A stretch of DNA of 32,000 bases from Candidatus Pacearchaeota archaeon (GTDB lineage Archaea > Nanobdellota > Nanobdellia > Pacearchaeales > UBA284). The translations under genes and the position numbers were made by a program. The notes beneath the pieces were generated by a model, which saw only the letters and a program-made list of their open reading frames with translations, was not told the origin of the DNA and made no database searches. This document shows, piece after piece, positions 1 to 9,299 of this stretch. Numbering within the stretch: position 1 is the first letter of the stretch; the number at the start of each line of letters is the position of its first letter. The stretch lies in the NCBI GenBank assembly GCA_026016245.1, contig CP061211.1, forward strand, positions 300,001-332,000, in the 5' to 3' direction.

Positions 1-1035
1 AGGAGCAATCAAGATTAATTTCTTTATCCTTTTCTTTGTTTCTCCTAACCACCTAATCAAAAAACCTCCTCCCCCGCTATGTCCAATTAAAACACTATTT
101 TCATTAATATTCAAATTTTTAAATTCTTTCTTCCAATCATTATATTTTGGATTCCAGTTATTAGGCATTAATGGAGCTTCTGTTTTAATTCCTTTTTTTT
201 CAAGTTGTTTCTTAATCCAAGGAATCCAATGTCTTTCATTTTGCGGAGGTTCTCCTCTAGCTAACTTTTCTTTATCTTTTTTATTTACTCCATGAACAAC
301 CACGCAGTTAATATCCTTATCCTCAATCTCAAAATCAATATCAACACCATGACTCTTGCCTATCCAATATTTTTGCATTAACTTAATATCTTCTGGCCAA
401 TCCTTTAGTTTGTCAATTTTATCATAAAGCTCTGAAGCATATTTTGTAATTTTGAAAAACCACTGCTCTAATTGCTTTATCTCAACTTCTGTATCTTCAT
501 GACGCCAACATTTTCCATTAATAACTTGCTCGTTTGCCAGAACAGTTTTACATCTTGGACAGTAATTAACAGGAGCTTTCTTTCTGTAAGCTATTCCCTT
601 CTTAAACATCTGCAAGAAAATCCATTGATCCCACTTGTAATAACTAAGATCATGAGTCATAACTAAGCGAGACCAATCATAACTTATGCCAAGACCTTTC
701 TGTTGTTTGATAAAGTTGGAAATTGCTCTATCTGTATATTTTTTAGGATGAATTTTTTCTTTGATAGCTGCATTTTCTGCTGGTAATCCTAAAGAATCAT
801 AGCCCATTGGATAAAGAACATTATAGCCTTGCATTCTCATAAATCTAGCATAAATATCCCCAATAGTATAATTAAAAGCATGACCCATATGCAAGCCATA
901 AGCAGAAGGATATGGAAACATCTCTAATACATAGAATTTCTTCTTTCCCTTCTTCTCACTAACAACAAAGATTTTTTTCTTTTCCCACTCTTGCTGCCAC
1001 TTTTTTTCGATGGCTTGGAAGTTAAATCTTGCCAT
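1..1035 (-). CDS. leuS: Leucyl-tRNA synthetase, bacterial type, N-terminal part only (runs off the left edge). Residues ~244-345 form an in-frame YdeN/RBBP9-like serine-hydrolase domain.
   Basis: Absent from the ORF track because it is open at the window edge. Manual reverse translation from ATG (1035-1033) gives [17 protein letters not shown], then [57 protein letters not shown] and [11 protein letters not shown]. It continues CVVVHGVN...[15 protein letters not shown]...[10 protein letters not shown]...LILIAP. Checked codon by codon: no in-frame stop down to position 1. Confidence 0.8.
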
Positions 1036-1092: not shown

Positions 1093-2007
1093 TCAGGAAG
1101 TCACATATAAATTTGAATTTTTATCAATCAAGCTAGCTCCCATACCTTTTCCAAACCAATAAGAATTTTGTGATTGCATACTGAATAATAAGTCAAATAA
1201 ACCTATCTCTCTTTGGTATTCCTTTATATTTACCTTTATTTCTAATTGTTCTTCAATATAATTTATTGCCTCTTCTTTTGTTCCTAACTGATCAACTAAA
1301 CCAAGATCTTTAGCTTCCTTGCCTAGATAAAACATTCCGTCAGCTAATTCTCTAACTTGTTCTTCTGTCATTCCCCTATTTTGAGCAACTTCTTTTACAA
1401 AGTCTTCATAAATAATATCAAGTTTTTTCAGGATCATTTCCCTCTCTTCATCTGTAAGTTCTCTGAAAGGGCTCATGACATCTTTATGTTCTCCAGAAGT
1501 AAGTTTTTCATAAGTTACATTATATCTTTCAAGCATGCCAGAAATTTCTAAATATGAAGCTATGACTCCTATTGAGCCTGTGAAACTTAGAGGATGTGCT
1601 ATTATATGGTCACAAGCACTTGCAACCCAATATGCTCCTGAAGTTCCTTGTTCTCTTATTAATGCTATGGTCAATTTTTCTTGTCTTGCTTTTTTTATTG
1701 CTTCTGCTATTTCACTTGAAGCAACAGCTGAACCGCCAGGACTGTTGATTTCAAAAATTATTGCCTTGATTTTTGAATCTTTTGTTGCATCTTCAATATA
1801 GGAAACAATCTCATCTGAACTTGCTGCCCTCTGAAGCATAAAATTAAAGCCTCCTGTTGTTGTGATTGTACCTTCTACAGGAATTAAAGCAACATTTTTT
1901 CCAAAATCTCCTTTACCAGCAAAAAGAACAACTATTACAACAAGAGCAATAACAGCGATAATAATTCCTATAACAATATTTCTTCCTTTTCCTCTGCCTC
2001 TTTTCAT
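1093..2007 (-). CDS. sppA: Signal peptide peptidase SppA (S49 family, 36K type), N-terminal membrane anchor
   Basis: N-terminal TM helix, EINSPGGSAVAS (Ser nucleophile region) and GTSGAYWVASACDHIIAHPLSFTGSIGV, typical of the S49/ClpP fold. Confidence 0.85.
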   Translation of the reverse strand: MKRGRGKGRNIVIGIIIAVIALVVIVVLFAGKGDFGKNVALIPVEGTITTTGGFNFMLQRAASSDEIVSYIEDATKDSKIKAIIFEINSPGGSAVASSEIAEAIKKARQEKLTIALIREQGTSGAYWVASACDHIIAHPLSFTGSIGVIASYLEISGMLERYNVTYEKLTSGEHKDVMSPFRELTDEEREMILKKLDIIYEDFVKEVAQNRGMTEEQVRELADGMFYLGKEAKDLGLVDQLGTKEEAINYIEEQLEIKVNIKEYQREIGLFDLLFSMQSQNSYWFGKGMGASLIDKNSNLYVTS

Positions 2008-2108: not shown

Positions 2109-2492
2109 ATGGATATAAAAGAACAAGTAAAAACATATGTTGGTGGGCAAATAGAAATTCAGAATTCATTTGAGGAGTATATTTATAGAGGAGAAATTGA
2201 GAGAATTTCTATTGAAAAAGGAAGTTGTGGCGATGAACTTCATGTTGGATTGGCATGGTTAGCAAAAGGTAAGGGATTTCCTCCGCAAGGATGGGTTAAA
2301 GATGATAAACAAGATTATTATCGTGCAAGTCTATTAATATATTCTATCTTTCCTATAAGTGATGGAAGAATATGTTGTAATTCATCTATTAATCACGAAA
2401 CTGTTGTTTTATTTCCAAAAAATGGAAGTAAATTAGATCCTTCTAAAGTTGAAGGTTTAGAGGCAAAATTTGAAGAAACAGGAACTAAATGA
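2109..2492 (+). CDS. Hypothetical protein (127 aa)
   Basis: Intact ORF directly followed by the next + strand ORF; no recognisable motif. Confidence 0.5.
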   Translation: MDIKEQVKTYVGGQIEIQNSFEEYIYRGEIERISIEKGSCGDELHVGLAWLAKGKGFPPQGWVKDDKQDYYRASLLIYSIFPISDGRICCNSSINHETVVLFPKNGSKLDPSKVEGLEAKFEETGTK

Positions 2493-2493
2493 A

Positions 2494-3057
2494 ATGGGAA
2501 AGACCAGATATATTTCTAAAAATAAGTTAAAAGAAATTCTTGAAGAGCTTTCGCAAATTCCTATGGCTAATCCTCTTATTGAACTTTTTGCACGTGAAAT
2601 AGATCTACAAACCATAATGTACAAAGAGGGAAGTTGTTATTATACAAATAATCCTAATTATAAAGATCATGAAATCTTTGGTAAAGTAAAAGAAAAGAAT
2701 TTAGATATTGAAGTCGCACTAGCCCTTCGTCAACAAAATAACAAATTAAATTTGGATTTTTATTCTGGAGATATTAAAGAAGTGATGTCTACAGGTGATT
2801 CAGATTCAGCTTTCTGTAATTATTTTTGTTATATTTCAGCTGGTTCTAAAGATACAGGAGTTTGGGCATATGGAAAAGGAGATCAAAAAACTCTTGGAAT
2901 CTCAGTTCATTTTTATAGTGATATTAATTTACCTACAAAAAAAGGACGATGGTTTTTTAACCTGATGAAATGGTTTTCTCTAATAGCTACTGAATTTCAT
3001 CTTGATATTCATGAACAACCTATTTTTTGGGGTGGAGATAAAGAAAATCCCCCTTAA
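2494..3057 (+). CDS. Hypothetical protein (~187 aa)
   Basis: ORF-track start is 2470. ATG at 2494 sits 1 nt after the upstream stop (2490-2492), suggesting coupled expression. No recognisable motif. Confidence 0.5.
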   Translation: MGKTRYISKNKLKEILEELSQIPMANPLIELFAREIDLQTIMYKEGSCYYTNNPNYKDHEIFGKVKEKNLDIEVALALRQQNNKLNLDFYSGDIKEVMSTGDSDSAFCNYFCYISAGSKDTGVWAYGKGDQKTLGISVHFYSDINLPTKKGRWFFNLMKWFSLIATEFHLDIHEQPIFWGGDKENPP

Positions 3058-8267: not shown

Positions 8268-9299
8268 TTAAGCAGTCCAAACAGTATTTCTACCCATTTC
8301 TTTGGCTTTGTAAAGAGCTGCATCGACTCTCTTGACAAATTGTTCTCTTTTTTCTCTCCTCTTTCTCTGACCAACGCCAAATGAAGCTGTGATTGTTCTT
8401 TTTGCTTTGTCTGGATAGAATGATTCAATTTCCTTTCTAATGGATTCAGCTAATTTTACAGCATCTTCAAAACTTGAGCTGACAAGTATGGCAAACTCTT
8501 CTCCACCATAACGGCATGCTTTTGCTTTCTTTGCCTTCTTCTGTAGAGTTTTTCCTAAATTAGCTAGAAGCTTATCTCCTTCAACATGTCCATAGGTATC
8601 ATTATAACTCTTGAAAAAGTCAAGGTCTAGGATTATCAAATTTACACGTTTTCTTTTTTCGATTTCTTTTTCCAGCATTGTTATGAAGTATCTTTTGTTG
8701 TATAGGCTTGTAAGTTCATCAACTATGGCTCTCTTAGCTTCTTTTCCATAAAGTTTGCTGTAAAGTTTAACTATCTTTTTTTCTTTTTCATCTACTGTCT
8801 GTTTTAATCTTGCATGTTGTATTGCTGAAGCTGTCTGAACAGCAATGGCATTTAAGATTTTTAAAGTTATGACATGGAAATTTCTATATTGGGCCATTAT
8901 GATCATTGTTCCTATCGGCCCGCTATAAGACATAAGAGGAGCAGAAATCAAGCTTCTTATTCTAAAATTTCTAAGTTTTGTATTAGGACGGGTTTGTTTT
9001 AAAAAAATAGGAGAAGCATTTTTGATAGTGTCTTCAGAAATAACTTTTAAAAGTTCCTCAAATTCAGGATGTAAGTTATCTTTTAATGAGCCTTTAATCT
9101 CAATTTGTCCTTTATTTTCAAGAGCTATGAAAACAAGAGAAACACGGAGCTCTTTATTAATAATTCTTAATACTTTTGTGACAAGTACATCTAAATTATC
9201 TGTAGAATGCACAGCTTTATTTATTGTTTTTAAAACTCTTAGCTCTTTAGTTGTATGAACCAGTTTTCTAACTACTTCTTCGTTTGCCATAAAAATCAT
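8268..9299 (-). CDS. GAF-like sensor plus GGDEF diguanylate cyclase
   Basis: C-terminal DELTSLYNKRYF...DLDFFKSYNDTYGHVEGD...RYGGEEFAIL...ASFGV...ALYKAKEMGRN is a canonical GGDEF domain with an intact GGEEF active site. Confidence 0.85.
   Translation of the reverse strand: MIFMANEEVVRKLVHTTKELRVLKTINKAVHSTDNLDVLVTKVLRIINKELRVSLVFIALENKGQIEIKGSLKDNLHPEFEELLKVISEDTIKNASPIFLKQTRPNTKLRNFRIRSLISAPLMSYSGPIGTMIIMAQYRNFHVITLKILNAIAVQTASAIQHARLKQTVDEKEKKIVKLYSKLYGKEAKRAIVDELTSLYNKRYFITMLEKEIEKRKRVNLIILDLDFFKSYNDTYGHVEGDKLLANLGKTLQKKAKKAKACRYGGEEFAILVSSSFEDAVKLAESIRKEIESFYPDKAKRTITASFGVGQRKRREKREQFVKRVDAALYKAKEMGRNTVWTA

Follow-up and report, generated by a model that had tools for sequence, protein, structure and literature searches.

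Few synthetases have been studied as thoroughly as leucyl-tRNA synthetase (LeuRS), a drug target whose domain plan is regarded as fixed. The left edge of the DNA analysed here raises the question of what a serine hydrolase is doing inside such an enzyme. The window is the whole stretch of 32,000 nucleotides, positions 300001-332000 of contig G000:C1 (CP061211.1) of a Candidatus Pacearchaeota archaeon, the genome of which is a single contig of 710,724 bp and is estimated to be 92% complete. From an ATG at 1035 down to position 1, a minus-strand frame of 345 residues runs without a stop. A sequence-only reading of this fragment had described it as the N-terminus of a bacterial-type LeuRS that passes into a YdeN/RBBP9-like serine hydrolase at the point where the connective peptide 1 (CP1) editing domain should begin, and had offered surrogate editing, a truncated paralogue or an assembly chimera as explanations. 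Here, we describe a complete LeuRS, the only one of its genome, which keeps its CP1 domain and carries a whole and apparently active hydrolase nested at the entrance to it. The nested hydrolase is an optional, exchangeable cassette that is common in ultra-small archaea and bacteria. We hold this architectural and evolutionary description with very high confidence; what the hydrolase does is graded more cautiously below.

A complete LeuRS with an additional enzyme inside

The leftward extension was made on the adjoining 8 kb stretch (L004). There, leuS continues on the minus strand as a single open reading frame (ORF) of 1009 residues (L004:6006-9035) that ends at L004:6006 (= G000:C1:298006). 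The stop just beyond the window that the sequence-only reading had named as a possible refutation is not there, and the frame runs uninterrupted through CP1. The 345-residue fragment itself, the translation of which agrees with the earlier one, matches Pfam tRNA-synt_1 at residues 12-225 (100.5 bits) and the Ser_hydrolase family PF06821 (26.2 bits, cut-off 22). For the whole protein, the order of Pfam domains is tRNA-synt_1 (12-225), PF06821 (266-425), the LeuRS editing domain PF13603 (431-597), the remainder of the catalytic core, and Anticodon_1 (841-946). The bacterial type proposed for this LeuRS holds as well: the NCBIfam model leuS_bact (TIGR00396) gives 889.7 bits against a cut-off of 548.4, while leuS_arch gives only 224 bits against a cut-off of 648.5. 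In line with this, the protein aligns end to end with structurally known bacterial-type LeuRS (T. thermophilus 1H3N/2BYT, E. coli 4AQ7, N. gonorrhoeae 6Q89; E 6.5e-214 to 1H3N) and shares with them the HIGH and KMSKS signatures, the CP1 editing motifs and the anticodon-binding domain. Unlike them, it has a foreign enzyme of 191 residues in place of T. thermophilus residue 242, which is the hairpin-turn residue.

The functional residues of the host enzyme were compared among 47 homologues, all of them LeuRS with a cassette at the same pre-CP1 site. The HIGH and KMSKS (residues 771-775) positions are invariant or nearly so, with H49 and G51 invariant and H52 nearly invariant. Within CP1, T438, T439, R440, D442, T443, H533, D534, R536 and D537 are all invariant. 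This is the sole LeuRS of the genome; the other matches to the archaeal LeuRS profile are the paralogous valyl-, isoleucyl- and methionyl-tRNA synthetases (ValRS, IleRS, MetRS), and no archaeal-type LeuRS copy was found in the genome by this search. From its status as the only LeuRS in a genome of this completeness, we infer that the protein should be active in both leucylation and editing.

These data bear directly on two of the possible explanations. An esterase that replaces CP1 or compensates for its loss or defect would fit the location of the cassette, at the entry to CP1, and the cleavage of aminoacyl bonds by RBBP9 (see below). However, CP1 is present (205.5 bits), and its threonine-rich TTRxDT motif and the aspartates of HDxRD are invariant in the 47 cassette-bearing LeuRS. 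Since CP1 is intact after the cassette, this is an insertion and not a replacement, and surrogate editing has hardly any chance of being right. An artefact or a dead module, i.e., an assembly chimera, a truncated LeuRS paralogue or an inert structural spacer, is suggested only by the odd look of the window fragment. Against it stand the single ORF in a one-contig genome, the status as sole LeuRS, the recurrence of the pre-CP1 junction in more than 80 independent assemblies, and the near invariance of the catalytic residues of the hydrolase. We thus consider an explanation of this type extremely improbable, and the chimera and the truncated paralogue can be set aside.

The nested hydrolase and its insertion site

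Alignment to T. thermophilus LeuRS (1H3N) places the insertion where CP1 begins, as had been read from the fragment. Residues 1-242 align with T. thermophilus 1-241 and finish in strand one of the beta-hairpin leading into CP1, and residues 434 onward align with T. thermophilus 243 onward. The cassette, residues 243-433, therefore replaces one residue in the turn of this hairpin. In the full-length AlphaFold2 model (predicted local distance difference test, pLDDT, 87.7; predicted template modelling score, pTM, 0.75), host strand 227-237 is followed by cassette strand 243-248, strand 432-438 leads the chain back, and the junctions have no disordered linker. The window ends within the hydrolase, at codon 345; the C-terminal end of the cassette (residue 433 = L004:7737) and the codons of Glu383 and His410 lie to the left of it.

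The assignment to the YdeN/RBBP9-like hydrolases is supported at several levels. On the whole protein, PF06821 passes its cut-off of 22 with 42.5 bits (E 8.7e-11), covering residues 266-425 and profile positions 11-167 of 172, so that the alpha/beta-hydrolase call has the profile support that the earlier reading lacked. A sequence search of the PDB with phmmer retrieves YdeN (1UXO, 2.7e-10) and RBBP9 (2QS9, 7OEX, 9FCR; 5.7e-6). A model of the cassette, built with 69 free-standing homologues, reaches a pLDDT of 95.7 and a pTM of 0.92. In the Foldseek comparison of this model, ranks 1-7 are all YdeN and RBBP9 at template modelling (TM) scores of 0.74-0.80, with 1UXO and 7OEX as top matches at 0.76-0.80, while every other alpha/beta hydrolase scores 0.62 or below. 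The modelled fold is that of a small lid-less alpha/beta hydrolase, closest to 1UXO and 2QS9.

To judge the state of the active site, we used the cassettes from a search with the insert region, which returned 129 long proteins; 120 of the 129 were used for the counts and yielded 124 cassettes. Ser320 and His410 align with Ser75 and His165 of RBBP9, and the position of RBBP9 Asp138 is taken by Glu383. Among the 124 nested cassettes the serine and the histidine are each present in 123, and an acid is present in 118 (Glu in 66, Asp in 52); the HG motif is likewise kept (His 123/124, Gly 124/124). As the triad is nearly invariant, the reading as a dead spacer is disfavoured, and the hydrolase is apparently active, as far as conservation of the catalytic residues can tell. 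Because the synthetic site, the CP1 residues and the hydrolase triad with its HG motif are all intact, the protein most likely carries three active sites: the synthetic one, the editing one of CP1 and the predicted hydrolase.

Compared with RBBP9 and YdeN (PF06821; 1UXO, 2QS9, 7OEX, 9FCR), the cassette has the same fold, nucleophile elbow, histidine and HG oxyanion motif, and its free-standing relatives have the same size of ~190 residues. On the other hand, the identity to them is only 20-23%, the acid is Glu383 (Glu or Asp across the subfamily) instead of Asp138, and the subfamily has conserved motifs of its own (HWxPW, WKKEF, RWLGE and FPELL). It also differs in being nested within another enzyme, and the residues forming the RBBP9 substrate cage are not demonstrably kept. 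With a protein query, only one cassette copy was found in the archaeon's own genome; a six-frame PF06821 search of the genome matched nothing.

Sites, hosts and free-standing copies of the cassette

The 120 long proteins listed show how widely the cassette is placed. The pre-CP1 site accounts for 81 of the 124 cassettes, 25 lie within CP1, past the AVPAHDxRD..FAKKY motif, and 5 lie around the SRQRYWG motif; some are tandem duplicates. At least four LeuRS sites are occupied in total. LeuRS makes up about 114 of the 120 long hosts listed; the other cassettes are in UvrB (4), DNA ligase (1) and GatB (1), and none of the 120 long matches listed is an IleRS, ValRS or MetRS. Some LeuRS (P0008, P0011 and P0012, and those of loci L027 and L064) have two hydrolase cassettes each, in tandem or at two sites, the two copies being only ~35% identical to each other.

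All cassettes start with N-[CV]-[VI][VI][VI]-HG and finish with FPELLxEI. The same lineages commonly encode free-standing proteins of this subfamily as well, ~190 residues long and 45-58% identical, which read M(I)NC...FPELLxxILK. These ends indicate that the insert is a whole ORF minus its start and stop codons.

Other inserts in LeuRS were seen as well. Many LeuRS of the order are 930-1030 residues long owing to other inserts at profile position ~360-370, inside CP1 (G003, G007, G013, G019, G020, G034, G057, G063, G077, G079, G080, G091).

Decoupled histories of host and cassette

How the cassette came to its present places was followed on a quick maximum-likelihood tree of the cassettes (IQ-TREE, calculated from all of the 124 rows, with Shimodaira-Hasegawa-like approximate likelihood ratio support). 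On this tree, at least seven well-supported changes of site label are required, and the GatB copy nests among LeuRS copies. In addition, the identities of host and cassette are uncorrelated among LeuRS with the pre-CP1 site (r = 0.12, 1081 pairs). For example, P0002 and P0039 are 81% identical in the host and 50% in the cassette, while the pair P0036 and P0045 is 66% identical in the host and 89% in the cassette. The lack of correlation means that the histories of host and cassette are decoupled.

Three states of the site are found even within the genus. One is the cassette studied here; in G023 the same site holds a cassette only 49% identical to it, in a host that is 80-84% identical; and G036 has an empty site and a free hydrolase gene, with a host 83% identical. 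The insertion point is confirmed by three empty-site alleles, that of G036 together with those of G117 and G065; they read ...EIDFEI-NG-KKWPIFTTR..., and the module of the studied LeuRS lies between those strands. The junction DNA has no direct repeats beyond 7-mers and no target duplication, and the insert has a GC content of 0.295 and a third-position GC content of 0.21, like the rest of leuS. Together, these features give no sign of a recent insertion or target duplication.

Such a record might be left by a selfish gene-in-gene cassette, that is, a mobile hydrolase ORF that spreads by in-frame insertion into essential genes and stays there because precise removal is hard. Its whole-ORF boundaries and conserved ends would agree with this, and so would the repeated switches of site and host on the cassette tree, the GatB copy among LeuRS copies, the uncorrelated identities and the three states within one genus. 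However, we found no mobility gene with the cassette, and neither junction repeats nor target duplication; its composition matches that of the host gene, and no RNA or intron family is matched. Moreover, the triad is under strong purifying selection, and nested and adjacent copies in one locus are 40-56% identical and so are not recent donor-target pairs. We consider this explanation improbable.

Self-removing elements were tried as candidates and rejected. Of the 124 cassettes, only 45 have Cys as their second residue, compared with 73 that have Val; the C-terminal FPELLxEI is without the His-Asn of inteins, and the fold is an alpha/beta hydrolase and not Hint. An intron was rejected because Rfam matched no family in leuS at E 0.1.

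Linkage of the hydrolase to leuS

The tie between hydrolase and LeuRS extends to the free-standing copies. Our sample of the archaeon's order comprised 121 genomes; a close relative of the cassette is nested in 10 of them and free in 11, and these two states are strictly exclusive. Eight of the 11 free copies are immediate neighbours of leuS and share its strand. The hydrolase ATG of G036 follows the leuS stop by one base, and in G117 the leuS ATG and the hydrolase stop overlap in the sequence ATGA. Judged from these junctions, a free hydrolase gene adjoining leuS looks translationally coupled to it in both gene orders.

One further locus of the order (G082:C10:31815-32374, minus strand) has a hydrolase copy, interrupted by stop codons, directly upstream of leuS, one TAA from being in frame; the LeuRS of this genome, 954 residues long, has an insert of about 114 residues at the pre-CP1 site.

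A wider scan of species representatives found 402 relatives, and 78 of the best 79 loci were analysed. Among the 48 archaeal loci, all with DPANN labels (Diapherotrites, Parvarchaeota, Aenigmarchaeota, Nanoarchaeota, Nanohaloarchaeota), the hydrolase is nested in a bacterial-type LeuRS in 27 (4 of them also with an adjacent free copy), free and only next to leuS in 9, and free but not adjacent in 9; the last three are a fusion to an archaeal-type LeuRS, a GatB copy and a UvrB copy. Of the 48, 37 are tied to a bacterial-type leuS, being nested in it or adjacent to it. The picture differs for the 30 bacterial loci, labelled as candidate phyla radiation (CPR): 5 are nested (at the in-CP1 site), none is free next to leuS, 23 are free and not adjacent, and 2 have an unknown N-terminal part. 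Unlike in the order sample, nested and free states are not exclusive here, as the 4 loci with both show; the two copies of one such locus are only 40-56% identical. Overall, DPANN archaea show a strong and recurrent tie between hydrolase and LeuRS.

The fusion to an archaeal-type LeuRS lies at L063:2297-5650 (plus strand), on a 7.6 kb contig of a Woesearchaeota metagenome-assembled genome (MAG; CAYHEY010000032.1). Here, a hydrolase of the cassette subfamily is joined in frame to the N-terminus of a LeuRS that scores 823 bits with TIGR00395; the linker is about 8 residues, and the GHSGG and GHF motifs are kept. It is a single example, and no second hydrolase fusion to an archaeal-type LeuRS was found in 401 genomes of the class.

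For the free copies that are not next to leuS, no neighbour recurs strongly, the best being a second Ser_hydrolase paralogue (5 of 32 loci), followed by Fic (3) and HAD (3) genes. At one of the 23 bacterial loci of this kind, in a Falkowbacteria MAG (L062:6922-8595, plus strand), a free HAD_2 gene and then a 336-residue Ser_hydrolase-NUDIX fusion lie near the free-standing cassette-subfamily copy.

What the hydrolase may do

RBBP9 has been shown experimentally to be an aminoacyl-bond hydrolase for hydrophobic amino acids; single Leu/Ile, Met, Phe, Tyr or Trp residues become bound to its catalytic serine as acyl-enzymes, and a free alpha-amine is needed (PMC8866121). By analogy, the module would hydrolyse the acyl bond of a hydrophobic aminoacyl compound with a free alpha-amino group. 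In DPANN archaea the module may be maintained in stoichiometric amounts with LeuRS because the two work side by side. Its most likely role would be that of a partner of LeuRS that is expressed with it and hydrolyses aminoacyl bonds. As an extra clean-up beside CP1, it might remove aminoacyl esters, thioesters, thiolactone or adenylates that were mis-made or released; it could also free leucine from peptides for an auxotrophic symbiont that is unable to make amino acids. As a whole, we somewhat favour the view that this is a complete sole LeuRS with a nested exchangeable hydrolase, which is a partnered aminoacyl-bond hydrolase and does not replace CP1. For a LeuRS-coupled role of the hydrolase, taken separately, the chances are about even, and any particular substrate is unlikely to be the right one.

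Several observations weigh against this view. The same cassette is also present in UvrB, GatB and DNA ligase. In relatives, NUDIX, HAD and HAM1 domains occupy LeuRS, which fits LeuRS as a general carrier. About half of the genomes of the order have no homologue at E 1e-5, which makes the function dispensable. The hydrolase of 23 of the 30 CPR loci is free-standing and not near leuS, which means that the enzyme works without LeuRS. In addition, the alpha-amine anchor of RBBP9, Glu108, and its cage residues Tyr99, Leu103, Phe140 and Leu141 fall in variable, gapped loops in the phmmer alignment, which is of sequence only, and are not conserved in the cassettes; the specificity of RBBP9 can therefore not be transferred to them.

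The main rival draws on much of the same evidence. According to it, the hydrolase is a hitch-hiker, namely an independent housekeeping aminopeptidase or esterase unrelated to leucylation. LeuRS would be only its carrier, since LeuRS is large, essential, constantly expressed and has insertion-tolerant loops, and nesting would secure expression and retention in a tiny genome. Besides the foreign hosts, the other domains found in relatives' LeuRS and the free-standing CPR copies away from leuS, the HAD-like domain nested in this genome's alanyl-tRNA synthetase (AlaRS) and the decoupled histories of host and cassette agree with a carrier. Nevertheless, the bias towards LeuRS among the hosts is strong, with at least four sites used and none in the structurally similar IleRS, ValRS and MetRS; free copies, whichever of the two genes comes first, seem to be translationally coupled to leuS; and the fusion to an archaeal-type LeuRS (L063) is an independent one. 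We therefore regard a mere carrier as doubtful and prefer a hydrolase that is partnered with LeuRS.

A more specific form of partnership can be proposed, in which the hydrolase provides LeuRS with a third site of quality control, one that can be exchanged horizontally. It would act as a serine-hydrolase 'sieve' for hydrophobic near-cognate aminoacyl esters, thioesters and adenylates beside CP1. We rate this proposal as unlikely. If true, it would add a new class to the editing or clean-up modules of synthetases, with members that are nested in the synthetase, fused to it, or free subunits whose translation is coupled to it.

Relation to known systems

Hydrolytic modules that work free or inserted in a synthetase, near the region handling the acceptor end, include AlaX, YbaK/ProXp, DTD and the INS domain of prolyl-tRNA synthetase. 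The likeness of our hydrolase to these trans-editing factors and to INS would lie in the manner of working; its fold is unrelated, being alpha/beta with a Ser-His-acid triad. Pfam gave no match to these families.

There are also precedents for synthetases with additional domains. The NCBIfam entry NF040702, 'isoleucine--tRNA ligase, N-acetyltransferase domain-containing', is a class I synthetase with a second enzyme domain, and domains have also been fused and swapped in CPR and DPANN synthetases, the nearest precedent that we found being B2-TyrRS in CPR (PMC5370408). Those are terminal fusions of other folds, whereas here a whole hydrolase is internal, uses several sites and alternates with a coupled free gene. 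In the searchable literature, we found no paper describing the hydrolase-in-LeuRS architecture. To what is known, the present work adds the series of empty, filled and swapped sites within a genus, the decoupling statistic, the contrast between archaea and CPR in linkage to leuS, and the fusion to an archaeal-type LeuRS.

An intact second hydrolase thus sits at the hinge of the LeuRS editing domain, and its alternation with a coupled free gene in relatives makes a natural split/fused pair, which predicts a protein partnership. If the hydrolase acts on aminoacyl compounds, it would represent a new type of fidelity or salvage module in minimal-genome translation. If not, it is still a clear case in nature of whole enzymes that come to be nested in essential proteins, are swapped there and change from one site to another. 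Either way, it bears on the evolution of DPANN/CPR proteomes and on protein engineering by domain insertion.

Origin of the bacterial-type LeuRS

The studied gene differs from the structurally known bacterial-type LeuRS named above in having an archaeon as its host. The genome is archaeal, since its small-subunit rRNA scores 1299 bits with the archaeal model and 1012 with the bacterial one, and the closest homologues of the protein are labelled Pacearchaeota, Nanoarchaeota or Woesearchaeota. Bacterial-type LeuRS is above the cut-off in 110 of the 121 genomes of the order, and a few have an archaeal-type LeuRS instead (G021, G055, G083, G109, G110, G115). The bacterial type is therefore old in the order. 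The horizontal acquisition suggested by the sequence-only reading can stand as an old event, and not as one specific to this genome.

Coordinates and neighbouring genes

Table 1. Parts of leuS and of its nested hydrolase that lie within the window.
Feature	Window position	Strand	Basis
leuS 5' third, codons 1-345 of 1009	1..1035	-	Translation, extension leftwards
LeuRS N-terminal catalytic part, residues 1-242	310..1035	-	Pfam tRNA-synt_1; aligns with T. thermophilus LeuRS 1-241
HIGH signature H49-M-G-H52, class I synthetic site	880..891	-	Conservation in 47 homologues
Cassette, first 103 residues (243-345)	1..309	-	Pfam, PDB matches, alignment, model
H248-G249, HG oxyanion-hole motif at the end of the first cassette strand	289..294	-	Cassette alignment
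Ser320 codon, nucleophile in G-H-S-G-G	76..78	-	Aligned to RBBP9 Ser75 and the YdeN nucleophile

Directly downstream of leuS, between it and alaS, lies a Fic/DOC-family gene (L004:4978-5874, minus strand; 85 bits) with a HPFVDGNGRVGR motif; among 79 related loci, only 5 have a Fic gene close to the hydrolase or LeuRS. The AlaRS gene itself (L004:2860-4989, plus strand; G000:C1:294860-296989) lies on the other side of it, about 4.1 kb left of the window start, and encodes 709 residues. Between the halves of the AlaRS catalytic domain is a HAD-like segment of ~130 residues (~209-339; PF13419, 26.5 bits, cut-off 23.8), which is common to ten other AlaRS. The motif I Asp of this segment is kept, and the general acid Asp+2 is Ile, Met or Thr, which makes phosphatase activity doubtful.

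On the other side, directly upstream of leuS and on the same strand, is a Peptidase_S49 (SppA-like) gene (window 1093-2007, minus strand), which is kept as a neighbour in G023 and G036 of the same genus and not in the wider loci. Two plus-strand ORFs of the window, 2470-3057 (195 residues) and 18404-19552 (382 residues), matched no Pfam family at E 0.001. The minus-strand gene at window 8268-9299 encodes a protein of 343 residues with GAF and GGDEF domains (diguanylate cyclase, 121.7 bits); enzymes of cyclic di-GMP (c-di-GMP) are unusual in archaea.

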